NCBI GenBank assembly: GCA_963422645.2 | Contig: CAXXVO010000017.1 | Span: forward strand, 32,001 to 96,000 | DNA: 64,000 nucleotides | Reading direction: 5' to 3' | Source: Alphaproteobacteria bacterium | Lineage (GTDB): Bacteria > Pseudomonadota > Alphaproteobacteria > UBA828 | Shown here: positions 27,090 to 40,723 of the stretch, in pieces | Layout of the letters: the number at the start of each line of letters is the position of its first letter | How positions within the stretch are numbered: position 1 is the stretch's first letter | Program-made: the position numbers and the translations under genes | The notes under the pieces: generated by a model | What the model saw: only the letters and a program-made list of their open reading frames with translations | Database searches by the model: none | Told to the model about the DNA's origin: nothing

Positions 27090-28977
27090 GTAACTGCCCA
27101 GGTTCTTGCTGTGAAAATTCTCTGGGATTCGGCACAACGCTACCCACGCGACGCCCGTGTGCTCCTCTGTGGTCGCCGGGTTTCACAGCTCACGATGCCC
27201 CTCTTGCGGACTGCGACCGGTAAGCTACCCCGATGTGGCCCGAAGTCCGCCCGCGCGACGGGCACCGATTTTCATTCTATGGGGTGGTCCAGCACGGCGT
27301 CGACCATGATCGTTTATGAGAATGGCTCCGCTGTTGGAGAACCCGTGCCAGGTGAGCTTACGCGCACTTGACGGTGGCGATGAGCCGATCCGATGGGCTG
27401 GTCAGGGCTTCGATGATATTCCAGCCCTGCTTTCTGGCGGTGGTGATGACGCTGCGCAGGATGGCGAAGTTCTCGGCCCCCTGCGCGGACCGGAAGCCCC
27501 CGGAGATCTTCTGGCGCAGCTTCATCATCCGAAGGTCGCGCTCGGCCTCGTTGTTCGTGAACCCGACCTCGAGGTCGATCAGGAACCGGAGCACCGCGCA
27601 TTTGTGGTCGCGCAGCCTCAAGGCCAGATTGTGACCGATCCTTCGCTTCCGGCGCTTCTTCCTCTTGCCAGGCGAGAACGGTGGTTGGCTCTCGTGAAAG
27701 GCCAGCGCATCGGCGATGATCTCGTCGTATCGGCGCTCGATCAGCGCCACAAGCCTCGCCGGAACGGCGATATCCTTGTCCAGCGCGATGCGGGCGGCGC
27801 GATTGGCTCGGCGCAGGAGCTGCTGCATCCGCCGGGCCCAAGCCTCCCCTTCGATGTCCACCAGCGCCTGCAACTCCCGCAGGTGATGGGCGTTGCACAG
27901 GCCGTGCTCCACCCCTTCCATCGCGAAGTACGGCTTCCAGTGATCGTGCACGACGATGCCGGAGACACCCGAGAGCAGGGCGCCGCGCTTGCCGCTGACC
28001 CGGTACGCCGCCAGCAGCGGCGTGCAGATCACATGAAGCCACTGCGTCTGACCGCCGATCCGCAAGCCGGTCTCGTCCATGTGTTTCACCCGCGCCGTGC
28101 CCGCCGCCAGGTCCTGTATGTGCAAGGCCGCGTCCCGCAGCCGCTCGGCCGCCCTCTCGCTCATCGTCGCCAACGTCGCAGCCGTCACCGGCGCGCCGAA
28201 GAGCTCGGCCATCACCTGCGACAGCCGATCCTCCGGCAGGAAGTGAGCGTGCTGAAGGTAGACCGCCACCCCGGCAATGCGCGGGCCGTACTGCACCGGC
28301 GCCGACACCCCGTCGGGGAACGCCGCCCGGGTCACCGTCCCGCAATGCCCGCAGCACTTGGCATGCGCCCGGTGCTCGGTCACCTCCAGGGGGCTCGGCT
28401 CGGGCAGATCGAACACCTGGCGGGCGACGGGCGTTCCCGCCCTGGCCGCGTCCGAAAGCGGCGAACCGCATCCCTTGCAGGAAGCCGGGACGTGATCCTT
28501 CACCCGATCCGGGTGATCGGCGCGGCGCAGCGTCTTGCCCTTGTGGCCGGGCTGGCCACCGGGCTTGCGGCCCGATTTGCCGCGCAGGCTTCGGGTTCGC
28601 CGCTTCGAATTCGGCTTCCTCAGCCCATCGCTCGAAGGCGGCTTGCCGCTGTTGCCGCTGTTGAGGCCGAGACGGCGCTCCAACTCCTCGATGCGCTCGA
28701 CGAGACGCGCGACTTGCTCTTCCAGCCGCGCGTTCTGCTGCCGAAGCCAGGCATTTTCCTCCCGAAGCCGGGCGTTCTCCTCCTCCAGGCGGGCGATCTT
28801 CTGCGCGGGCGTTTCGGGCGCTGCTCCCGTCGAAGGGCCGCGCGGCGACTCGGGATTGCTCATGTCGTTGTTGAGTCATTTCCCGAAATTCCCGTCAAGC
28901 CCTTTCCACCAACTCCGAACGAGAAACGCCTCAATCCACTGGCCCAAAATGACAAATCAGACGACCTGGGCAGTTAC
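27090..28977 (-). mobile_element. IS66-family element (single-ORF, ISBst12-like), copy A, no matching duplication
   Basis: GTAACTGCCCAGGT terminal inverted repeats; flanks GATGGGTG and CTTAACAC differ. Confidence 0.92.
27358..28863 (-). CDS. IS66 transposase (TnpC type)
   Basis: Coiled coil, NSGKPPSSD, Zn ribbon, HMDETG, VHDHW, LCNAHHLREL, TNNEAERDLR. Confidence 0.93.
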   Translation of the reverse strand: MSNPESPRGPSTGAAPETPAQKIARLEEENARLREENAWLRQQNARLEEQVARLVERIEELERRLGLNSGNSGKPPSSDGLRKPNSKRRTRSLRGKSGRKPGGQPGHKGKTLRRADHPDRVKDHVPASCKGCGSPLSDAARAGTPVARQVFDLPEPSPLEVTEHRAHAKCCGHCGTVTRAAFPDGVSAPVQYGPRIAGVAVYLQHAHFLPEDRLSQVMAELFGAPVTAATLATMSERAAERLRDAALHIQDLAAGTARVKHMDETGLRIGGQTQWLHVICTPLLAAYRVSGKRGALLSGVSGIVVHDHWKPYFAMEGVEHGLCNAHHLRELQALVDIEGEAWARRMQQLLRRANRAARIALDKDIAVPARLVALIERRYDEIIADALAFHESQPPFSPGKRKKRRKRRIGHNLALRLRDHKCAVLRFLIDLEVGFTNNEAERDLRMMKLRQKISGGFRSAQGAENFAILRSVITTARKQGWNIIEALTSPSDRLIATVKCA

Positions 28978-29011
28978 CTTAACACACCTCACGCATCGGC
29001 GAACGCACATT

Positions 29012-29465: not shown

Positions 29466-29536
29466 TGAGCGCGCGCGGTCTTTCAGCGGGGATCGGGGCC
29501 TGATCCGCTCGGATTTGTTGAGGTTTTGGGGCGGGT

Positions 29537-29580
29537 GCCCCTCGGCGAACTTGCAAGAAGTTCGCCGGGGGGCTTTGTCT
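29537..29580 (+). terminator. terminator-like hairpin inside the transposon left end
   Basis: GCCCCTCGGCGAACTT-gcaag-AAGTTCGCCGGGGGGC followed by TTTGTCT. Confidence 0.6.
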
Positions 29581-29615
29581 CGTGGTGACGGTCACAATCG
29601 CCAGAGACGGCCCCA

Positions 29616-30233
29616 ATGTCGCACAACATTTTCCGCCACTCCATGCTTTGCAACGCCCTGGTCTGGGCCTGGCTGCGCGAGGTCGATGAGGCCGAGGCGG
29701 CGCGCTGCCGCGAGGCGGGCTGCCGACACTGCCCCGGCAAGCTGCACAGCGCGACGTATCCGCGCAAGCCGTACGGTCTGGCAGCCGAGTTGAGGGAAGA
29801 GGGCACGCGGCGGTTCAGCTTCTGCTGCGCGGATTGCCGCCTGCGAGCGACCCCACCATCGGTACGATTCTTCGGGCGCCGCTTTTATCTGGGCGCCCTG
29901 TTCGTTCTGTTGAGTGCACTGGTTCTGAGAGGCGGGGTGCGGTTGCAGACGATCAAGCGGAAGTGGGGGGTCTCGGTCGCCACACTGCGCCGCTGGCGGA
30001 AGTGGTGGCTGGAGGCGTTCCCGGCGACGGAGCCCTGGGGAGCGAAGCGTGGCGAACTGGTGATGCCACCCGAGGAGGTGCCGCTGCTCTTCGTGCTGCG
30101 GCAGATGCGGGGCGGACGCTTCGGTGAGCGTCTGTTCCTGAGCCTGATCTGGTTCAAGCCGTGGACGGGCTATTGCGGGCTCGGCGATGGCTCGGCGCCG
30201 CCCGCAGAAAGTGTTCCTGTCACGCCCGGATAG
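29616..30233 (+). CDS. transposon-associated Cys-rich Zn-ribbon/HTH protein (DUF6431-like)
   Basis: CREAGCRHC...FCCADC, TPPSVRF, HTH-like WGVSVATLRRWRKWW; first gene of the element. Confidence 0.65.
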   Translation: MSHNIFRHSMLCNALVWAWLREVDEAEAARCREAGCRHCPGKLHSATYPRKPYGLAAELREEGTRRFSFCCADCRLRATPPSVRFFGRRFYLGALFVLLSALVLRGGVRLQTIKRKWGVSVATLRRWRKWWLEAFPATEPWGAKRGELVMPPEEVPLLFVLRQMRGGRFGERLFLSLIWFKPWTGYCGLGDGSAPPAESVPVTPG

Positions 30234-30282
30234 GGCGTTCTACATGGGCATCTCTCCGATGCGGCGAGGGAGGGATGCCGGA

Positions 30283-31758
30283 ATGGACAAGGACGACGCA
30301 GGCGCCAGGCGCGAGAAGTGGGCCCGGCTGCGCTTTGCGGTGGTGGGGCCGCTTCTGGCTTCACTGCCGCCTGCAGGCCAGCTGGGGGCCGAGTTCGAGC
30401 GTCTGTCGCAGCGCGACTGGGAGCACCCGTCGGGCAAGGGGCCGGTGCGCTTTGCGGCCTCGACGATCGAGCGCTGGTACTACCGGGCGCGGGCAGAGGA
30501 GCAGGACCCGGTCAAGGCGCTGCGCCGGAAGCCTCGGACCGACGTCGGCCGCGAGCGGTCCATGTCGGCGGGGCTGATCGCGGCGCTGCGCGAGCAGTAC
30601 CGGGTCCATCCCTCGTGGGCGGCGCAGCTCCACTACGAGACCCTCAAGGCTCATGTTGCGACCCATCCCGAGCTCGGCCCGATGCCGTCCTACGCGACGC
30701 TGACGCGGGCGATGCGCAATCGCGGCCTGGTGCGCGAGCGCCCCAGGAAGTGGCACGAGGGTGAGGACAAGCCGGCGGTCGAAGCCCGCGAGGTCCTTAG
30801 CTACGAGGTGTCTCGCAGTCACGCGCTGTGGCACGGGGACTTCCACCACGGCAAGCGCCGCGTGCTGACGGCGTCGGGCGAATGGCAGACGCCCATCCTG
30901 CTCGGCTTCCTCGACGACCACTCCAGGCTTGGCTGCCACCTGCAGTGGTACCTGGAGGAGACCGCCGAGGTCTTCGTCCACGGGCTCTGTCAGGCCTTCA
31001 TGAAGAGGGACTTGCCCAGGTCCCTGCTGACCGACAACGGCGGGCCGATGACGGCGGGCGAGGTCGAGGAGGGCTTGCACCGCCTCGGCATCGTGGGGGC
31101 CACGACACTCGCTTACAGCCCCCATCAAAATGGAAAAATCGAGTCGTTCTGGGGCACGGTCGAGGGCCGCCTGATGGCTCAGCTCGAAGGCGTCGACGCG
31201 CTCACCCTGAAGATGCTCAACGACGCCACCATAGCCTGGCTGGAGCAGGACTACCATCGGCGGGTGCACCGCGAGCTCGGCATGACGCCGCATGAACGCC
31301 TCGCCGGGAGCGTCAAGGCATCGAGGCCCTGCCCCGCCTCGGACGAGCTCAAGGCGGCCTTCCGCATCGCCAGGAAGCGCACGCTCAGGCGCTCGGACGG
31401 CACCGTCTCGGTCGAGGGCATCCGCTACCAGGTGCCACAGCCGTGGCGCCACCTGAGGACGCTCTGGGTCCGCTATGCGCGCTGGGACCTCAGCGGCGTC
31501 GATCTGGTGGAAGGCCGAAGCGGCGAGCGGCTGTGCACGCTGTACCCCCTCGACAAGCGCGGCAACGCCGATGGCGTCCGCCGTCCTGCGAGACCCGGCA
31601 GCGACCATGGCGGCGCCAGCGCGGGCGTCGGCGAACTTCCGCCGCTGCTCAAGGGCGTGCTCGACGCCCAGGCCGCAACAGGCCTGCCGCCGGCCTGGGT
31701 ACCCCATAACAAGACGCCCGGTCCGGGCGAGGACGACGATCAGGGAGATCCGTCATGA
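30283..31758 (+). CDS. DDE integrase/transposase (rve core, Mu-transposase C-terminal type)
   Basis: LWHGDFHH, FLDDHSR, LLTDNG, NGKIESFW, HRELGMTP, DGTVSVEGIRY. Confidence 0.9.
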   Translation: MDKDDAGARREKWARLRFAVVGPLLASLPPAGQLGAEFERLSQRDWEHPSGKGPVRFAASTIERWYYRARAEEQDPVKALRRKPRTDVGRERSMSAGLIAALREQYRVHPSWAAQLHYETLKAHVATHPELGPMPSYATLTRAMRNRGLVRERPRKWHEGEDKPAVEAREVLSYEVSRSHALWHGDFHHGKRRVLTASGEWQTPILLGFLDDHSRLGCHLQWYLEETAEVFVHGLCQAFMKRDLPRSLLTDNGGPMTAGEVEEGLHRLGIVGATTLAYSPHQNGKIESFWGTVEGRLMAQLEGVDALTLKMLNDATIAWLEQDYHRRVHRELGMTPHERLAGSVKASRPCPASDELKAAFRIARKRTLRRSDGTVSVEGIRYQVPQPWRHLRTLWVRYARWDLSGVDLVEGRSGERLCTLYPLDKRGNADGVRRPARPGSDHGGASAGVGELPPLLKGVLDAQAATGLPPAWVPHNKTPGPGEDDDQGDPS

Positions 31759-32588
31759 ACCGCGAGCTGCTCACCTTCTACGGGCTCAAATGGAACCCCT
31801 TCGCCACCGACCTTCCGGTCGACAGCCTCATGGTGAGCCCCGCCGTCGACAGCTTCTGCCTCAGAATCGAGCATCATCTTGTGCGCCAGGGCGGCTTCGC
31901 GTTGATCGCCGGCGAGCCCGGCACCGGAAAGAGCGTGGCGTTGCGCGTGCTCGCCGACCGCCTCGGCCGCTCGGACGGGCTCAGGGTCTGTGCCATCACC
32001 CACCCCTCTTCCAGGCTGTCCGACTTCTACCGCGAGATCGGCGGGATGTTCGGCGTCGACCTGATGTACAACAACCGCTGGGCCAGCTTCAAAAACCTGC
32101 GCGAGCGATGGCTCACCCATGTCGACGACACCCGCATGCGGCCCGTGGTGCTCATCGACGAGGCCCAGGAGCTGCTGCCCTCGGTGATCTCCGAGATCCG
32201 CCTGCTGGCGTCCACCGACTTCGACTCGCGCGCCATCCTCTCGGTCGTCTTCGCCGGCGACAGCCGCCTGATCGACAGGCTCCGCCAGCCCGACTTGCAG
32301 CCCATCGCCTCGCGCCTGCGCCAGCGCCTGGTCATGACCCAGGCAGACGCCGGCGACCTCGCGGCCCTGCTCGACCATCTGGTCGAGCAGGCCGGCAATC
32401 CGGGCCTCATGAGCGCAGAGCTCAAGGACACCCTGGTCACCCACGCCGGCGGCAACCCCAGGGCGCTTACCGTCATGGGCGACATGCTGCTCGCCGCCGG
32501 CGCCGAGAAGAACCGCGAGGTTCTCGACGAGAAGCTCTTCATGGAGATCCTGGGCGAGCCCGCCAAGCCGAAGAGGGCACGGCGGTGA
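31755..32588 (+). CDS. ExeA-type AAA+ ATPase (TnsC/MuB-like role)
   Basis: YGLKWNPF, GEPGTGKS, VLIDEAQ, AGGNPR; ATGA overlap with the transposase. Confidence 0.88.
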   Translation: MNRELLTFYGLKWNPFATDLPVDSLMVSPAVDSFCLRIEHHLVRQGGFALIAGEPGTGKSVALRVLADRLGRSDGLRVCAITHPSSRLSDFYREIGGMFGVDLMYNNRWASFKNLRERWLTHVDDTRMRPVVLIDEAQELLPSVISEIRLLASTDFDSRAILSVVFAGDSRLIDRLRQPDLQPIASRLRQRLVMTQADAGDLAALLDHLVEQAGNPGLMSAELKDTLVTHAGGNPRALTVMGDMLLAAGAEKNREVLDEKLFMEILGEPAKPKRARR

Positions 32589-33583
32589 AGGGCTTCCCGA
32601 CACGGGCGCCGATGCAGCTCGAGGATCGCCCCCGGGCGCAACAGTGGATGGTGGACACGCTGTGGGCCGAGCAGGCCGTGGGCATCGTCGGCGGCGAGCC
32701 CAAGTGCGGCAAATCCCTGCTCGCGCTCGATCTCGCCGTCGCCGTGGCCACCGGCGTCCCATGCCTGCGCCACTACCGCCCCAGCGCAAGCGGCACCGTG
32801 CTGCTCTTCGCCGCCGAGGACGCCGGCCACAGGGTGCGCAAGCGTCTGCAGGGGATCGCCCGCGCCGCCGCCACCCCCTTCGACGAACTCGACATCGCCG
32901 TCATCGACGTGCCCACCCTGCGTCTCGACCAGCGCATCGACCGTCAGCGCCTGCAGGAGACCGTGGAGCGCATCGAACCGCGCCTCCTGATCCTCGATCC
33001 CCTGGTCCGCCTGCACAGCGTCGACGAGAACGCCGTCGCAGAGATCGCCCCCATCCTCGGCTTCCTGCGCGAACTGCAGCGCCGCTTCGAAACCGCCGTC
33101 CTCCTCGTCCACCACGCCCGCAAGAGCGGCGGCACCCGGCCGGGGCAGGCCCTGCGCGGGAGCAGCGAGCTGCACGCTTGGGGTGACTCAAATCTGTACC
33201 TGCGCCGGCGCGACAAGAAGATCGTCATGACGGTCGAGCAGCGCGACGCCCGGGGCCTCAACGACATCGAGCTGGAACTCGTCGACGGCGGACATGGGCC
33301 GGCCTTCCGTCTGCACCAGGACGCGGCAGATGAAGACAGGCACGAGCCCGCCACCGTCGAGCAGCGCGTCTTCAAGGCGATCGAGCAGGCCGAAAAGCCG
33401 CTCTCGAAAGCCCAGATCCGCTCACGCGCCGCTGCCCGCAACGCCACCGTCGTTGCCGCCATCGAGAGCCTCACCAGGGAGGGGCGCATCGAACGGGCGC
33501 CCAGGGGTGGCTATCGCCTCGCAGCCGCCGAGGCGCACCGGGAGCCGCAATCCCCTGCCGCCATCAACGGAAGTGCGGGATGA
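32585..33583 (+). CDS. AAA_25/RepA-like (RecA-fold) helicase-type ATPase with C-terminal winged helix
   Basis: GTG start overlapping the previous stop; GGEPKCGKS, FAAED, LILDPL, DEN, LVHHARK, LRGSSEL. Confidence 0.82.
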   Translation: MKGFPTRAPMQLEDRPRAQQWMVDTLWAEQAVGIVGGEPKCGKSLLALDLAVAVATGVPCLRHYRPSASGTVLLFAAEDAGHRVRKRLQGIARAAATPFDELDIAVIDVPTLRLDQRIDRQRLQETVERIEPRLLILDPLVRLHSVDENAVAEIAPILGFLRELQRRFETAVLLVHHARKSGGTRPGQALRGSSELHAWGDSNLYLRRRDKKIVMTVEQRDARGLNDIELELVDGGHGPAFRLHQDAADEDRHEPATVEQRVFKAIEQAEKPLSKAQIRSRAAARNATVVAAIESLTREGRIERAPRGGYRLAAAEAHREPQSPAAINGSAG

Positions 33584-33644
33584 GGCGTTCCCGTTCCCGT
33601 TCCCGGAACTCTTAAGCGTTGAAGGGTACAGGAACGGGAACGCC
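33584..33644. repeat. inverted repeat built from GTTCCC units (origin-like)
   Basis: GGCGTTCCCGTTCC pairs perfectly with GGAACGGGAACGCC; arms extend to 21 bp with 2 mismatches. Confidence 0.75.
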
Positions 33645-34299
33645 GTCAGCCTCCCTTCCAAGCAGACCTTCGCCGGGACCCGGCAATGAGCGGCGGCGAT
33701 CCCCTGGCCACCTGCCGCAACATCCCCCTCGACCGGGTCGCCGCCGCCCTCGGCTACCGCAGAGACCCGACCGACCGGGCGCGCTTCAAGCGCGGGGGCT
33801 CGGTCATCAGCATCAACGGCGAGAAGTTCTTCGATCACCTGCGCGGCACGGGAGGGGGTGGCGCCATCGACCTCGTCATCCATGCGACGGGATGCCGCTT
33901 CCCGGAAGCCCTCCGCTTCCTCGGAAGCCATGAGGGGCGGAGGGAGATCACCACCATCCCAGCCGCCCCGCGACGCCTGCGGCTGCCAAGGCCCAGTCCC
34001 CGCGCCTGGCCCAGGGTCCGGGACGCCCTCATCCGCCAACGCGCTATCGGCACCGACGTGCTCGAAGCCTGCCACGGCCGAGGCCTCCTCTACGCCGATG
34101 ACAGGATCAACGCCGTCTTCATCTGCCGAAACGCCAGCGGGCACACGACCGGCGCCGAGATCCTCGGCACCGCGCCGCAGCCCGGAACAAAACAGTCATG
34201 GTCCCCGCGGTTCTGAGCCACCCCGTGGCATGAAACAGGAGCGGTTCGGCTGACGTTTTCCTTGCGCTTGCACCCATTTGCCGTGTCAGGATGGGTATT

Positions 34300-34500
34300 G
34301 GCGGAGGTGGGGACGTGTGAGCGTCGTTATATCGGTGACGTAGTTCCCGATGACAAAACTGCTTCCGGCGGCCGGCTCCGCACCCCGTATTGTACCCGGC
34401 CCGTGGCCGTGGACGCGCGGCAAATTGCACCGCACCCGCTCGTCGGATGCGTGTTCTTCCGACCGCTGTCCCCGCCTCCACCGTGGCGATGCCACGGCGT
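34300..34500 (+). ncRNA. candidate IS110 bridge RNA (boundaries approximate)
   Basis: Structured non-coding left end with ACAAAAC (34353-34359) matching the target flank and CGGCAAA (34418-34424) matching the element right end. Confidence 0.55.
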
Positions 34501-34544
34501 GATCGTACGCCGCCGTGGCGAGAGCGCAAATGAGGAGGAAGGCG

Positions 34545-35795
34545 ATGAAGACGGAAGGCTTGCACGTCGTCCGGCCGCGCGCGGCGGGTCTGGACGTGCA
34601 CAAGATGGAGATCACCGCGACGGTTCGCCTCTGTGAGGGCGAGGGTGAGCCGGTGGTGGAGACGCGCTGCTTCGGCACGCTGCCGAGCGGTCTGGAGGAG
34701 ATGGTCGCGTGGCTGACCGGTCACGGCGTCGAGGCTGCGGTGATGGAAGGGACCGGGGTCTACTGGCAGGCGCCCTTCGCGGCCCTGGAGGCGGCCGGGC
34801 TCGAGGCGATCCTGGTGCATGCGCGTCAGGTGAAGCAGTTGAAGGGGCGCAAGACCGACGTGGCGGACAGCGTGTGGCTGGCCTGCGTGTGCCAGTTCGG
34901 GCTCTGCACGCCTTCCCACGTTCCGCCTGAGCCGTTCCGGGAGCTGCGCGCACTGAGCCGCCAGCGCCGCGTCCTGGTCAGGCAGCGCTCCGCCGTGCGC
35001 AACCGCGTGCAGAAGATCATCGACCGCGCCGGTGCGCGCATCGGCGGCATCCTCTCCGACGTCTTCGGCGTCAACGGCCGGAAGATCCTCGACGGCCTGG
35101 CGCAGGGGACGGCGCGCGAGGTCATCCTCGCCTCGCTCACCAGCCACGTTGCGAACAAGCTGGAGGGGCTCGGCGAGGCGCTCACCCTGAGCCTGGGCGA
35201 CAACGACCGCTTCATGCTCAACGACCTGCTGGAGGAGCATGACGCGCTTGAGGCGCGCATCGCGTCCTACACCAGGAAGATCGACGGGCAGATGACACCG
35301 TGGGAGGAGCAGCTCCGTCTGCTGACCACCATCCCCGGCATCGACCGCACCGCCGCCTCGACCATCCTCATCGAGATCGGCCCCGACATCGGCGTGTTCG
35401 CCTCCAAGGAGCACTTCGCCGCCTGGGCCGGGCTCTGCCCCGGCAACAACGAGAGCGGGGGCAAGCGCCGCAACGCACGCACCCGCATGGGCTCCAAGAC
35501 CCTGCGCGCCTGCCTCGTCGAGTGTGCCCACGGCGCGGCCCGAACCAAGGGGTGCCAGTTCGAGGCTCATCACCGCGCCCTCGCCGCCCGGCGCGGCTAC
35601 AAGCGCGCCATCGTCGCCGGCGCTCACAAGATGCTGCGCATCATCTATGTGGTGCTCAAGACCGGCAGGCCCTACTACGACCGCACGGCCGACTACGACG
35701 CTCTGATGGTCAAGCGCAACGCTCCTCGGTGGATCCGCATGCTCCGCCGCTACGGCTACATCGAGCCCGTAGGCGCGGAACTCAAGGCCGCCTGA
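34545..35795 (+). CDS. IS110 DEDD recombinase/transposase
   Basis: AGLDVHK, VMEGTGVYW, RKTDVADS, TIPGID, GLCPGNNESGGK; RBS GAGGAGG. Confidence 0.95.
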   Translation: MKTEGLHVVRPRAAGLDVHKMEITATVRLCEGEGEPVVETRCFGTLPSGLEEMVAWLTGHGVEAAVMEGTGVYWQAPFAALEAAGLEAILVHARQVKQLKGRKTDVADSVWLACVCQFGLCTPSHVPPEPFRELRALSRQRRVLVRQRSAVRNRVQKIIDRAGARIGGILSDVFGVNGRKILDGLAQGTAREVILASLTSHVANKLEGLGEALTLSLGDNDRFMLNDLLEEHDALEARIASYTRKIDGQMTPWEEQLRLLTTIPGIDRTAASTILIEIGPDIGVFASKEHFAAWAGLCPGNNESGGKRRNARTRMGSKTLRACLVECAHGAARTKGCQFEAHHRALAARRGYKRAIVAGAHKMLRIIYVVLKTGRPYYDRTADYDALMVKRNAPRWIRMLRRYGYIEPVGAELKAA

Positions 35796-36422
35796 GCGGC
35801 CCGCATCTCGTCAGCCGGCTACGCGGGACCGCTTCGGACCACATCGGGGAAGTCCACCGCTCGTCTCCGCCGCGCCGACCCTGGCGGTCTCAGCCAACGC
35901 CGTGACCTCGGGGTTGGAGCGTCACCGCGCGTCCCTCGCCAGAATCTGTTTCACGGCAAACGCTTCAGGGGCATGGCCCCGGGATCGCGCAAGGCGCGTG
36001 GCGGCTTCTGGCTCCACTGCGACCGAAACCAGCCCGCCCTCGTCATCCTCACCGAGAGCGCCGTCGACGCCATCTCTGCACGAAGCCTGCGCGTCGAGGG
36101 GACGCGCGAGAACGGCGCCGTCGTCGCCTCAACCGCCGGCATCGCCAGCTCGGTCCCGCCCTGGATCAAGGAGTGGAAGCCACGTCGCATCGTCTGTGCC
36201 TACGACGCAGACAGCGCCGGCGACACTGCCGCCGAGCATCTCGTGCTCAACGATCCAAGGGTGAAAAGGTTGCGCCCACGACACGCCAAGGACTGGAACG
36301 AGATGCTCCTGCGGTCTCGATGAAAGCCAGGCCACTCACCGCTCTCGCAGATCAACCAAGCGCCGCATCACGAACATCAAATAATCCGAAAACCGCACCA
36401 TCAAATGCTGGGCGCACGCTCA

Positions 36423-37113
36423 GCAGGAGCCGGATGATATCGGCCTGCTCTCGCCTGCTGTTGCGGGTCTGCCTGTCCAGGACGTGATGGAGCCGGGATA
36501 TCTCCTCCCGGGACAAGAAGCGTGTGAGCATCCGCCTCGGGTTCCTTTCCACGGCCCACGCCGGGTTGGTTTCGAGGTGGCCGCGGGCGATGGCGAAATT
36601 GATGATCTGCGTGAGAAGATCGAGTGCGTGATTGGCGTTGCCGGGGGCGCTCCGGCTGAACCGATCGAACCATCGCCCGATGTGCGTTGGCGAGATGCGG
36701 TCGAGCGGCTTCGAGCCGAAGGCCGGCAGGAGTTGGCGGTCGAGCACGGATCGCACGCCCTTCCTGGTGGACGGCTTGTAGCCGTCGAGATGAGCCTCCT
36801 TCCACGCACCCTCGACGAAGTCCCGGAAGAGCGGAGCCGCACGCCTGGGTGCTCCGGTCGCTTCCGGTTCGGCCTTGCGCGTATGGCATTCCCGGCGGAC
36901 CTCCGCGACGGTCTTCAGCGACACCGGACCGAGCGAGATCCGCCTCGACCGCCCGCCGGTGTTCTCCAACAGGACATAGCTCCGCCCGCCGGTGGGCCGG
37001 ACCCGAACCCCGAGGCCGACAAATTGATTATCCCAGACCGTAAATTCCTGCTCGCGAGGGCGGAGACGGGCGATGGCACGGTCGGCGAGCCGCATGCGTT
37101 CCCTGCCGGCCAT
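36423..37113 (-). pseudogene. tyrosine integrase 2, N-terminal part (arm-binding domain)
   Basis: VWDNQFVGLGVRVRPTGGRSY, RFLSREEI, ADIIRLLL, then the transposon end. Confidence 0.85.
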
Positions 37114-37384: not shown

Positions 37385-39859
37385 CAATGGCATTCACTTA
37401 GCGGTTTTCGACTGTTCACTTAAGGAGTCGTGTTCTTGCGCTGTCGGTTGCGTGCGTTTCTGTCGTTCAGGTGTTCAGGCGACGGCCCGCTTTGCGCGTG
37501 CCCACTTGCCGCGGGGTTTGCGCGACCTGCGTTCGCAGGACCGGCCGGCGCGCTCAGCGCTGACGCGCCTGGTTGATGCAGGAGAGGACATGGCTGAGGG
37601 TTTCGGCGACCATCGCCGTATGGCGCAGCAGCAGCGCTTCGAGGTTGCGCGCGACGGTGGCGAGGCCGTTGCTGAAGTTGGCTTTCATCGCCGGCTTGCC
37701 GTCGGCAGGGCGCTCGGCGTCGAGGCTTGCGTTGCTGCGGTTGGTGAAGAGCCGGGTCATGGCGATGAGGTTGAAGTGGGCGAAGAGCTCCTGGCGGACG
37801 CCGCGCTCGGTCTGGCTGTGGAAGGCCTCGACGGCCATGGCCTGTTTCGAGGTCTTGTAGAGTTCCTCGATTCCCCAGCGCGCGTGATAGAGCTCGGCCA
37901 GTTCCGCGACGCTCCAGGCCTTGGGGTCGAGGAGGGTGGTGGCGAGGATGAAGACCGTGCTGCCGATGCGGTAGCGGACCAGTCGCAGGCGCAGCGGGGT
38001 GGCGTCGACGTGCGGCGTCTTGCGGCGCAGCTTTCTCAGGGTGTCCTTTCCGGGAGCGACGGTGATCGGCGCGTCCGTGCGGCCGTCGGCGATGAAGGCG
38101 TCGAGGGCGGCGCCTGCCTTCTTCTTGATCCGGAACACGGGGTGCAGGCCGCGGGCGACATGGGCGTGCAGCATCTCCCAAGAGTAGTAGCCGCGGTCAT
38201 AGACCACGATGTCGTTGGCCGAGAGCGCCTTGAGGTGGGCGAGGGCGGCCCTTCTTTCGTCGCCGTGCGCGACCAGGTCGAAGTCCACCGGGATGTTCGC
38301 GTGCAGCCGGTAGAGGCAACTCAGCAGGCCCTGCGGGTAGTGGGCCGCCTCGGAGGGCGTGCGGTAGCCGGCCTTGAGCAGCGGCCGCGGCAGGTTGAGC
38401 TTGGAGCCGTCGACCGCGAACACGCGGTGGCCCTTCCAGGCCGGGCCGTCGGCGCGCTTGAGGATCTCGGCGTGCAGCGTCTTGAACACCGCCTCGTCGA
38501 CCTTGGCCCGCGCCATGCACATCGCCGAGGCCGAGACCGGCGCCGGCTGCGGCAGTGCGACGCCCAGGACCCGGCACTGCTCCCACAGCCCGGCCAGCGT
38601 CGTGGCGTAGCCCGCGCGGCCGTTCGAGAACGCCAGCCGGAAGATGAAGAGCATGACGAGAAGGGTGTCGAGGACCCGCCGGCGGCTCTGCCACACCCGG
38701 TCGTGATCGGCGGCCACCGCCGCCAGTGCGCCGATCAGGTCCTGCCACAGCGCCACGAAGGGATCGTCCGGCGCCAGCGCTGCCGGCCGTGTCCTGTTCC
38801 CGCGCCGCGCCGGCCGCGGGCCTTCGAGCAGGATCGAGCGGAAGTCCGGCGTCAGCGGGTAGACGTAGACGCTTTTGCGGGTCTTGCCCTTGCCGCCCCC
38901 GGTCTCGCCGAGACAGCGCCAGTTGGCCGCGCGGTAGCAGGCGCCGTCGAAGAGGCTGGGGTCCACGAAGGTCTCCACCAGAACCGGGCGCGCTCCGAAG
39001 CGCGCCTCCCAGTCGCCGGGCAGCTGGCGCAGCGCCATCGACAGCGCTTTCGACGCCAGGTTGTCGACCCGGACCCAGGGAAAGATCAGGAAACGCGTGT
39101 GACCCACGACCAGATCGAGGTGCTTGCGGAAGCCTTCCGCCGGCCACCCGATCCACTCGTCGCGGCAGGGCAGCGTGCGCGACGCCCGGGCAAACAGAAG
39201 GCAGCCCAGAGGCCGCCCGTGGCGGTCCAGGAGAAAATAGCGCAGATGCGCGCCGACCAGACGATGCAGCCCGAGATAGTGGTGGCGCGCGACGAACTCG
39301 TTCCACAGCCCGCCCTCCTCCTTGCCCGCCGCAATCGACAGGCGCAGCGGCATCAGCGCGGCCAGGTCCTCCGCGATCGCCGCGGCCGGCGCCGTCCGCT
39401 CGCTCCGGGCCATCGCCTCCTGCGGCCCCCGCACCTGCGCCTCGTCCCGCGCCGGCAGGGTCAGGATGCCCAGCCGCTCCAACTCCTCCAGCATCCGCAG
39501 GCAGACCGCGACACGGTTCCGCCCGCTCGGCGCGCGCCAGTTCAAATGCTCGCAGATCGTGTGCCCGAGCTCGTTGCGGCTGATCGCCGGAAACAGCGCC
39601 ACCGTCTCCTGGATGTCGGCAATCTGCCGGCGGGTCAGACGTCTGCCGAAAAAGGTCGTCGACTTCAGCGCGGTGATGCGGGGGTCCATGGGCCGGCTCC
39701 ACTGACAGGGGGACAGCCACAGTGTGCCAAAGCACACGCCGCCGGTCAATCCCCCTCGTGCGGGAAACGCCGAGACCGACAATCCACACAAGAAATCAAC
39801 TCGTTACGACACCACCAAAAAAACCCCGGAACAATCTTCGCGCCAAATGAATGCCATTG
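37385..39859 (-). mobile_element. IS4-family element with 10-bp duplication
   Basis: Terminal repeat CAATGGCATTCA; GCGCGGCGCC at 37375-37384 and 39860-39869. Confidence 0.92.
37554..39689 (-). CDS. DUF4338 (DruA-like) domain fused to an IS4-type DDE transposase
   Basis: N-half: HHYLG, RDEWIGW, RFLIFPWV, NLASKAL, LVETFVD, GACYRAANW. C-half: AVDGS, YDRGY, YHARWGIEELYK. Confidence 0.82.
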   Translation of the reverse strand: MDPRITALKSTTFFGRRLTRRQIADIQETVALFPAISRNELGHTICEHLNWRAPSGRNRVAVCLRMLEELERLGILTLPARDEAQVRGPQEAMARSERTAPAAAIAEDLAALMPLRLSIAAGKEEGGLWNEFVARHHYLGLHRLVGAHLRYFLLDRHGRPLGCLLFARASRTLPCRDEWIGWPAEGFRKHLDLVVGHTRFLIFPWVRVDNLASKALSMALRQLPGDWEARFGARPVLVETFVDPSLFDGACYRAANWRCLGETGGGKGKTRKSVYVYPLTPDFRSILLEGPRPARRGNRTRPAALAPDDPFVALWQDLIGALAAVAADHDRVWQSRRRVLDTLLVMLFIFRLAFSNGRAGYATTLAGLWEQCRVLGVALPQPAPVSASAMCMARAKVDEAVFKTLHAEILKRADGPAWKGHRVFAVDGSKLNLPRPLLKAGYRTPSEAAHYPQGLLSCLYRLHANIPVDFDLVAHGDERRAALAHLKALSANDIVVYDRGYYSWEMLHAHVARGLHPVFRIKKKAGAALDAFIADGRTDAPITVAPGKDTLRKLRRKTPHVDATPLRLRLVRYRIGSTVFILATTLLDPKAWSVAELAELYHARWGIEELYKTSKQAMAVEAFHSQTERGVRQELFAHFNLIAMTRLFTNRSNASLDAERPADGKPAMKANFSNGLATVARNLEALLLRHTAMVAETLSHVLSCINQARQR

Positions 39860-40723
39860 GCGCGGCGCCGGGAACACCCACAGCCCGGTCCGCTCCAGCC
39901 CGTCGAGAACGTTTCGGGCGGGCTGTGACAGCCAGACGGTGCGGGCCCCGGTCTTGCTGTCGCGGAGGAAGAGGTGACCCTCGCGGTAGTCGGACCAGCG
40001 GAGCGTCAGGATCTCGCTCTTGCGGCATCCCGTCAGCAGGAGGAGCCGGATGACGGCGACCTGCTGCCGACGCCCATTTGCGTGGGCCGACAGTCTCGCC
40101 GACAGGCGGCGTATCTCCTCGTCGGACAGGAAGCGCGCGCGTCCCTTGCGGCGATAGCGCCGGATACCCAGGCAGGGGTTGGAGCCCTCCGGTCGAAGAC
40201 CCATGGCTTCCGCTTCCCTCAAGATGACGGAGAGCACCGGCATTGAGCGGTCGGCGGCGACCGGGGTCGCGCGCAGCGATGCGAACCAGTCGCGAACATC
40301 CCTCCGGTCGATGTCGGCGACTTGCCGTCCCTGGAAGCGGGGCAGGATCTGGTTCTTCAGGTAGCACCGGTTGACATCCAAGGTTCCCGGCTTCCAGAGC
40401 CTCCGGTAGCGCTCGAACACGGTCTCGGCGACGGCCTCGAAGAGGGTGTCGGCGGGGTCGCGGGGTGGGTCCTCTCCCCGCCGGATCGCGGCGATAGTTT
40501 GCACGGCACTCGACCGCGCTTCGTCTACGCTCATAGCGGCTGCGTCGCCGACGATCTTCCAGATGCGTTCTCCTTGATGCTGGGAATGGACGAAGAAGCG
40601 TTTGCGCCCCGAGGGCAGCACCCGGACACCGAAGCCTCCGAGTTTGCCGTCGCGAATGTCGTAGGCGATCTTGCGGGGTCGAAGCGCCCCGATACGGGCG
40701 TCGGTGAGAGCGGTTCGGGCCAT
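39860..40723 (-). pseudogene. tyrosine integrase 1, N-terminal part
   Basis: IRDGKLGGFGVRVLPSGRKRF, RFLSDEE, LLLTGCRKSE, DSKTG, WVFPA, then the IS4 end. Confidence 0.88.

Follow-up and report, generated by a model that had tools for sequence, protein, structure and literature searches.

A probable short-guide bridge RNA in the left end of a multicopy IS110-family element from an alphaproteobacterial genome

Does the noncoding left end of an IS110-family insertion sequence (IS) carry an RNA that reads both the site that the element enters and the element's own end? The question is raised by a 64,000-nucleotide (nt) stretch of an Alphaproteobacteria bacterium genome (GenBank assembly GCA_963422645.2, contig CAXXVO010000017.1, positions 32,001 to 96,000; here called the window, with position 1 its first letter), in which a first-pass annotation made from the sequence alone had proposed a candidate bridge RNA. 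Based on comparisons across the genome and among relatives, we conclude that the left end of this element very probably encodes, on the + strand and 5' of the recombinase gene, a bridge RNA of ∼180 nt with two single-stranded left guides. The locus is a genuine IS110-group bridge-RNA locus, a short-guide form of known RNA-guided DNA mobility. The sequence data contain the element and its many copies, a target motif, a conserved RNA structure, and covariation of both guides with their partners. Bridge RNAs, a class of programmable guides for recombination, came to light only recently, and nearly all mechanistic work concerns IS621 and a few relatives. The element described here is a natural and very active example (48 copies, 33 distinct sites, tandem arrays) whose target rule can be read from one genome. 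The features on which the argument turns are as follows.

34192-35959, + strand: IS110-family element, a single 1768-bp unit (body 34192-35957 plus one AA core copy)
34190-34191 (left) and 35958-35959 (right): AA core copies, placed by flank comparison, tandem period, and empty paralogues
34303-34479, + strand: structured, bridge-RNA-like domain of ∼180 nt, from the RNAalifold consensus and pair counts
34352-34359, + strand: left target guide GACA-AA-A, then an invariant C; single-stranded, with hairpin Pb before it and the 3' strand of helix Pa after it
34418-34424, + strand: left donor guide CGGC-AA-A, equal to right end 35954-35957 plus core plus the first left-end base
34545-35795, + strand: recombinase gene, 416 amino acids, ATG at 34545, with GAGGAGG upstream at 34533-34539

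We collected relatives of the element from species-representative genomes (57 loci) and metagenomes (15 loci); locus numbers carry the prefix L. Their proteins range from 97% down to ∼42% identity, and many are multicopy within a genome. All have a left junction that reads flank-AAAC-NNN-CATGG and a right end that reads TT(T/A)CnC(A/G)(G/A)(C/T)AA. A consensus structure was derived with RNAalifold, with two hairpins added by hand, from 26 of the 31 distinct left ends; those dropped were identical there (L050, L054, and L056), truncated (L067), or aberrant, with an insertion (L076). The consensus has 41 pairs in 7 helices, including the following.

34303-34313/34469-34479: helix P1, the outer closing helix
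34319-34323/34360-34364: helix Pa, which closes the first sub-domain
34333-34338/34345-34349: hairpin Pb
34366-34375/34459-34468: helix P2, a long-range helix that closes the second sub-domain
34397-34401/34405-34409: hairpin Pe
34431-34438/34444-34451: hairpin Pd

Across the 26 sequences, 92.2% of the cells are paired, versus 39 to 51% when the partners are slid by 1 to 3 columns. Both sides have changed at 14 pairs, and the covariation score was reached by none of 500 shuffles. For example, pair 26-74 is G-C in 17 sequences, U-A in 7, and A-U in 2, and pair 28-72 in helix Pa is G-U in 24 of 26; such G-U pairs fix the RNA strand as +. A covariance model built on this structure found a single match in the window (34296-34490) and, in the whole genome, exactly one per IS copy (48 of 48). 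Among 73 sources it gave 68 matches, each 5' of a homologous gene. The idea that the left end encodes a bridge-RNA-like structured RNA is therefore supported by a conserved, covarying fold. The first sub-domain consists of the 5' strand of Pa, nine variable nucleotides, hairpin Pb, the target guide, and the 3' strand of Pa, and the second, within P2, of a conserved loop, hairpin Pe, the donor guide, and hairpin Pd. In the consensus, the columns of the two left guides are unpaired, which answers the concern that the guide matches might fall in paired stems.

Some individual pairings did not survive comparison. The small hairpin that the first-pass annotation had placed at about 34321-34341 (CGUC/GACG, 34322-34340) is paired in 86% of cells, but 51 of 500 shuffles do as well, and it clashes with Pa and Pb. 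A pairing of 34357-34362 with 34450-34456 in the single-sequence minimum-free-energy fold is unconserved in other lineages, where the consensus has Pa. A GCA/UGC helix closing the donor loop works in lineages A and C only.

Both 7-mers singled out by the first-pass annotation occur twice: ACAAAAC in the left end (34353-34359) and at the left junction (34187-34193), and CGGCAAA in the left end (34418-34424) and at the right end (35954-35960). The third string that it named, CTGT, is present at 34466-34469. Read from one base earlier, GACAAAA (34352-34358) equals the top strand of the left target (4 nt), the core, and position +1. We aligned guides and flanks gap-free from the guide's AAAC. In 50 distinct pairs, the two are identical in 49 at position -1, 47 at -2, 44 at -3, 34 at -4, and 9 at -5. 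When the 16 guide variants were permuted among the flank sets (L076 and L067 left out), none of 100,000 permutations reached the observed agreement of 58.24 (mean, 22.87). The check that had been suggested, guide-target covariation across aligned left ends of relatives, thus turned out positive, and the segment at 34353-34359 stands as the left target guide, being unpaired and covarying with the flank. Among related elements, the segment homologous to 34351-34355, which holds the four variable letters of the guide, shifts together with the flank, as listed here.

Lineages A-C: guide GACA, flank ACA
Lineage D: guide ATCT, flank ATCT or GGCT
Lineage E: guide ATAT, flank ATAT
Lineage F: guide GCCA, flank GCCA or CCCA
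L038: guide CACC, flank CACC
L040: guide ACGC, flank ACGC
Lineage J: guide TGAG, flank TGAG
Lineage K: guide GTTG, flank GTTG

The elements at L038 and L040 are 98% identical, yet their guides (the letters before AAAC) and their flanks differ in step. Metagenome loci obtained later agree, with guide-flank matches of 8 nt (L079), 7 to 8 nt (L084, L085, and L091), and 11 nt (L092). The invariant AC that follows the core-matching AA of the target guide is identical to the first two bases of the element, so the guide is fully complementary to the left junction of the product; by extending the pairing there, this AC could play a handshake-like role.

The donor guide behaves in the same way toward the element's own right end. 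In 34 pairs, guide and right end are identical in 33 at -1, 33 at -2, 34 at -3, and 34 at -4. At -3, G and A switch jointly on both sides (24 G, 10 A), and further joint variants occur at -2 (A/G) and in L046, L069, L072, and L084. As the first-pass annotation had proposed, 34418-34424 qualifies as the left donor guide, since it is unpaired and covaries with the right end in homologues. The right-end motif CGGCAAA also occurs inverted in the left end (CACGGCAAA, minus strand) at 34277-34283, where it is kept as CACGGCA in lineages A to F only.

The genome itself supplies the target rule. It holds 48 copies of the element, 47 of which are identical over 1751 nt and 1 of which has a small internal deletion. 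They are spread over 37 places that represent 33 distinct sites, some of them occupied by head-to-tail arrays. For the target logo, we aligned all junctions and merged tandem-internal junctions and duplicate flanks, which left 32 independent sites (the copy at C6:66380 was left out; the prefix C denotes contigs of the assembly). Position -4 is G in 16 of the 32, -3 is A in 28, -2 is C in all, -1 is A in 31, and the core is AA in all 32; the +1 base is A in 23, G in 8, and T in 1. From +2 onward, scored to +12, these sites carry no target information. The right end of the element always reads CACGGC-AA. The genome (67% G+C) offers 337 free ACAAAA sites.

The exchanged core is AA. It is present at 32 of the 33 distinct sites, the exception being C6:66380, with an aberrant right junction. 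The first-pass annotation had taken the core as AAAC or AC; at the 32 sites, target and donor have only AA in common where strands are exchanged, and the next two letters, AC, are the element's own. That AAAC is shared by both junctions of the window copy is a coincidence of its own target: since the target has an AAAC of its own, a 4-nt ambiguity is left in the boundary of this copy. Other placements of the core (CA, AC, or AA moved by one position) are each at odds either with the junctions that have G or T at +1 or with the four A's that are constant at the left junction. The target that the first-pass annotation had reconstructed, GGAACAAAAC followed by GCTTC, is real: of the 26 genomic occurrences of its 26-nt left flank, 23 run on directly into AAAC and then the right flank (empty sites), and the other 3 lead into the IS. 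Empty paralogues have the predicted form, left target-AA-right target, at three of six testable sites (23, 66, and 2 empties, all matching). One of the empty sites has G at +1 (ACA-AA-G), which pins the exchange within AA. Another of the six is uninformative: its 24-nt probe hit 34 other places, whose continuations differ from one another and never equal the prediction.

The copy at C6:66380-68130, with its aberrant right junction (GGCAT...), lies inside a 105-copy repeat, and 101 empty paralogues there read ACA-AG-GAT-ATCG, so that the core is mismatched (AG) and 3 nt were lost after insertion. Separately, the guide-encoding DNA at 34352-34359 is itself a perfect 8-nt target (GACAAAAC), yet all 48 copies lack an insertion at that place; elsewhere in the genome, only 112 GACAAAA sites are free. 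Self-avoidance, loss of nested copies, or chance could account for this lack.

The protein belongs with this kind of RNA. The recombinase, the sole gene of the element, contains the Pfam domains PF01548 (E 1.8e-23) and PF02371 (E 4.5e-21), scores 270.3 bits against NF033542, "IS110 family RNA-guided transposase" (cut-off, 140), and is homologous to the transposases of IS621 (8wt6; E 6.3e-16) and ISCro4 (E 2.6e-15). In the alignment with IS621, as read by eye, the E of EGTG, both D's of KTDVAD, and the S of ESG appear to line up with IS621 residues. The left end (34192-34544) is 353 nt long, compared with 162 nt for the right end (35796-35957), and contains the RNA domain. A left end that is longer than the right and carries the RNA marks the IS110 group (PMC11208160), and the element has this arrangement.

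From homology to IS621, the following can be proposed for the pairing of the RNA with DNA, for its role, and for the chemistry. The GACAAAA guide (34352-34358) would read the left target flank (4 nt), the AA core, and one further A, and the CGGCAAA guide (34418-34424) would read the element's own right end in its circular or junction form. Holding this RNA, the DEDD/Ser recombinase would exchange strands at the AA common to target (nACA-AA-A/G) and donor (CGGC-AA-AC).

The tandem arrays give a view of the donor side. Copies are joined head to tail in arrays of two, three, or five units with a period of 1768 bp, as follows.

C11:48123-56947: five copies
C16:27187-32473: three copies
C10:44768-50055: three copies
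C8:169712-173230: two copies
C8:727938-731457: two copies
C5:476536-480055: two copies

Between GGC and CAGTC, six of the 11 IS-IS junctions have three A's and five have four. The circle junction that the first-pass annotation had reconstructed, CACGGCAAAC joined to AGTC, is found literally at the former six. The two types follow from the guide sequences. GGC-AAA-CAGTC is the donor junction, a perfect match to the donor guide that is mismatched at all four variable positions of the target guide. GGC-AAAA-CAGTC corresponds to insertion one base to the right, into GGCA-AA, with one target-guide mismatch, and this variant is also used at three nontandem sites. One chromosomal site carries one, two, or three copies on contigs C19, C8, and C10, which suggests either copy-number variants in the sequenced population or assembly redundancy (stated contamination, 8.48%).

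The element also has a sub-terminal inverted repeat.

34231-34238, + strand: left arm TGAAACAG, ∼40 nt inside the element
35946-35953, + strand: right arm CTGTTTCA, directly 5' of the donor-guide match CGGC

Four covarying variants occur among relatives (GAAAC, GAAAT, GTAAC, and GAAAG), and all 16 distinct pairs of left arm and right end retain a complementary run of 5 to 8 nt. The repeat may be a protein site, a stem in the single-stranded circle, or an RNA-DNA contact.

Expression was approached through RNA libraries. In three of four metatranscriptome runs, which stem from different studies, contigs cover the left ends of 90 to 99% similar relatives, and one such contig joins a right end to a left end. 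These contigs show neither ends nor strand, DNA carry-over is possible, and parts left uncovered carry no meaning.

Several results weigh against our conclusion. The RNA-library contigs come from relatives of the element and possibly from carried-over DNA, and scans of the left end and of a tandem right end-left end junction detected neither a sigma-70-like promoter nor an intrinsic terminator. An Rfam search of 33500-36600 with E up to 10 returned five weak matches, none near its gathering score or from a bridge RNA family. The fold of the complete left end is no better than that of its shuffles (z -0.18); for the 183-nt domain by itself, z is only -2.03, and 7 of 200 shuffles did as well. 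The donor guide is inherited together with the right end, both being in one element, so their covariation rests on few independent changes. At two of the six testable sites, the empty paralogues read AG instead of AA, and one of these junctions, that at C6:66380, lacks 3 nt. In addition, the guide lies here on the 3' side of its loop, after the inner hairpin, unlike that of IS621, and the right target guide (RTG) and right donor guide (RDG), which help define the IS621 model, were not detected in the left end; neither was a handshake guide (HSG). No column of the 194-nt RNA model is consistently identical or complementary to the right target flank (45 RNA/flank pairs; best mutual information, 0.5 bit), and none matches the donor triplet after AAAC (34 pairs; the triplet takes ∼15 forms). 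The first-pass annotation had likewise found no convincing right target guide.

It had offered CTGT (34466-34469) as the right donor guide, which the alignment contradicts: all four bases are paired in helices P2/P1, and the string stays CUGU in lineages D and E though the right side of the donor is ACCG there instead of ACAG. We compared the unpaired segments X (34324-34332), Y (34383-34396), and Z (34452-34458) by eye and by scan with the right target, the donor triplet, and the IS621 rule for RTG plus HSG, and no consistent pairing was found. Complementarity of X to the target guide holds in lineage E only. A k-mer scan gave three matches to the reverse complement of C+triplet+C in one column; they lie in helix P2 and follow the partner strand.

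How, then, are the right halves of target and donor recognized? A right target guide may be limited to the core. With no right-side guide detected for either, recognition would extend over only ∼6 to 7 nt, and a site of this length (ACAAAA) fits the spread to 33 distinct sites as well as the tandem arrays with their two kinds of junction. We tentatively entertain a minimal, one-sided bridge RNA, in which each loop has one 7-nt guide (four programmable letters, then AAA) placed after the inner hairpin and the right halves go unread by the RNA. It is somewhat doubtful, in our estimation, that this is instead a canonical four-guide bridge RNA as in IS621, whose right guides are very short (core plus 1 to 2 nt) or discontinuous and hidden in 34 to 45 RNA/DNA pairs, for example, in U-rich stretches of X or Z. 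Work on IS621 (PMC11208158) describes a natural RTG that pairs with only 4 nt and an RDG interrupted by flipped bases, which would suit such guides, and X, Y, and Z do vary between lineages, X even between L038 and L040 (at 2 of 9 positions). Against four guides stand the lack of target information from +2 to +12 and the absence of any RNA column that tracks the right target or the donor triplet, the k-mer matches being confined to helix P2.

It is very unlikely that the repeated 7-mers lie outside any RNA and act as DNA signals, either recombinase-binding sites or decoy copies of target and end. The empty promoter and terminator scans and the slender RNA-library evidence would be expected in that case, and the element does possess a covarying DNA-level inverted repeat; however, the segments sit among helices in which changes compensate for one another and numerous G-U pairs hold on the + strand alone, and the recombinase belongs to a family named as RNA guided and is homologous to that of IS621. 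Coincidence can practically be dismissed. The motifs are only 7 nt long, and the window contains 14 occurrences of CGGCAAA where shuffles predict 9.06 on both strands (∼0.025 per 350 nt), but the agreement between the 16 guide variants and their flanks was never reached by permutation. The first-pass annotation had put the chance of a given 7-mer at roughly 2% per 350 bp; for ACAAAAC it is lower, with 1.40 expected per 64 kb on both strands and ∼0.004 per 350 nt on one.

If the one-sided bridge RNA is real, substrate sites (target and circle junction) and product sites (both junctions) would be recognized equally, and insertion, excision, and donor-donor recombination would be equivalent for the RNA. 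This would explain the promiscuous spread over 33 sites, both classes of tandem junction, and the presence of one, two, or three copies at one site. It would also show how short guides can become in nature and connect their design with promiscuity, tandem amplification, and reversibility, a matter of relevance to the off-target behavior of engineered bridge recombinases.

Compared with IS621, as described in PMC11208160 and PMC11208158, the element shares a homologous recombinase with DEDD and Tnp domains, an RNA in the long left end 5' of the gene, a target loop that precedes the donor loop, and left guides that equal the top-strand left flank plus the shared dinucleotide core. The first-pass annotation had held that the order of parts matches IS621. 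This is correct for the order of the loops; within the loop, the IS621 layout is stem, left target guide, inner stem-loop, RTG, stem (PMC11208158), with the left guide preceding the inner stem-loop, whereas here the guide is 3' of the inner hairpin. According to the same sources, the core is CT in IS621 and AA here, the left guides have 7+2 nt there and 4+2(+1) nt here, and the IS621 RNA is transcribed from a promoter re-formed at the join of right end and left end, across which we found no sigma-70 promoter. In our element, by contrast, the donor guide sits in a multibranch loop closed by P2, the whole domain is closed by P1, and the sub-terminal inverted repeat measures 6 to 8 bp, with its left arm ∼40 nt inside. 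Overall, the target rule is much shorter than that of IS621 (∼6 to 7 nt, on the left side only), and the guides are placed differently in the fold.

The inverted repeat and the multibranch loop recall the IS1111 group. According to PMC11208160, an IS110-group element is expected to have a sub-terminal inverted repeat of 2 to 3 bp beside a programmable donor, and the 6 to 8 bp found here differ from this; the bridge or seek RNAs of the IS1111 group go with repeats of 7 to 17 bp and, within a multi-loop, carry the nucleotides that bind the donor. The IS1111-group RNA, however, lies in a long right end 3' of the gene, not in the left end as here.

Tandem duplication of IS110 modules with left-donor-only matches (10.64898/2026.08.14.744561) and half-match recombination of IS110 (10.64898/2026.08.31.748434) have already been described. 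There, as here, modules form head-to-tail arrays, the internal junction keeps the left-donor match, and one half-site is apparently enough. Half-site recognition is an off-target event in those systems, whereas here it may be the normal mode for both target and donor. ISPpu10 (10.64898/2026.03.19.712850) is likewise an IS110 element with a bridge RNA; there, a target stem-loop adds a second layer of specificity, in contrast to the window lineage, with its 33 unrelated contexts that share only ACAAAA. A likeness to ISPpu10 is seen in relatives L045 to L058, from Pseudomonadales metagenome-assembled genomes (MAGs), all of which lie in one repeated intergenic-like sequence.

In that Pseudomonadales group, the repeated sequence is GGTGAGAAA-TGCGGGCTAG, and loci L028 to L042, from Alphaproteobacteria MAGs, also share a single one, CATATAAA-CCGGACAGCAGTGG. 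Repeated insertion into one context sets both groups apart from the window lineage, with its unrelated contexts.

Between the RNA domain and the ribosome-binding site of the recombinase gene lies a strong hairpin at 34490-34520 (GCCACGGCG...CGCCGCCGUGGC), which is not exceptional against shuffles (z -0.97). It is absent in the distant lineages J, K, and L, and the deletion in the copy at C16:23531-25249 falls there. This hairpin may separate or couple the RNA and the mRNA.

The element accounts for a major repeat family of the genome and for the disruption of a Toprim gene at this locus.

33686-34191, + strand: 5' part of the interrupted host gene (DUF3991 region; PF13154, PF13155), which resumes at 35960-36323 (Toprim); 23 uninterrupted paralogous sites

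The host region at 29501-36500, comprising an AAA-type ATPase open reading frame and the DUF3991/Toprim gene, is itself repeated in ∼19 to 27 near-identical copies. Window positions 28001-29000 are present ∼110 times and tiles within 37501-40000 are present 19 to 22 times, in a genome very rich in mobile DNA.

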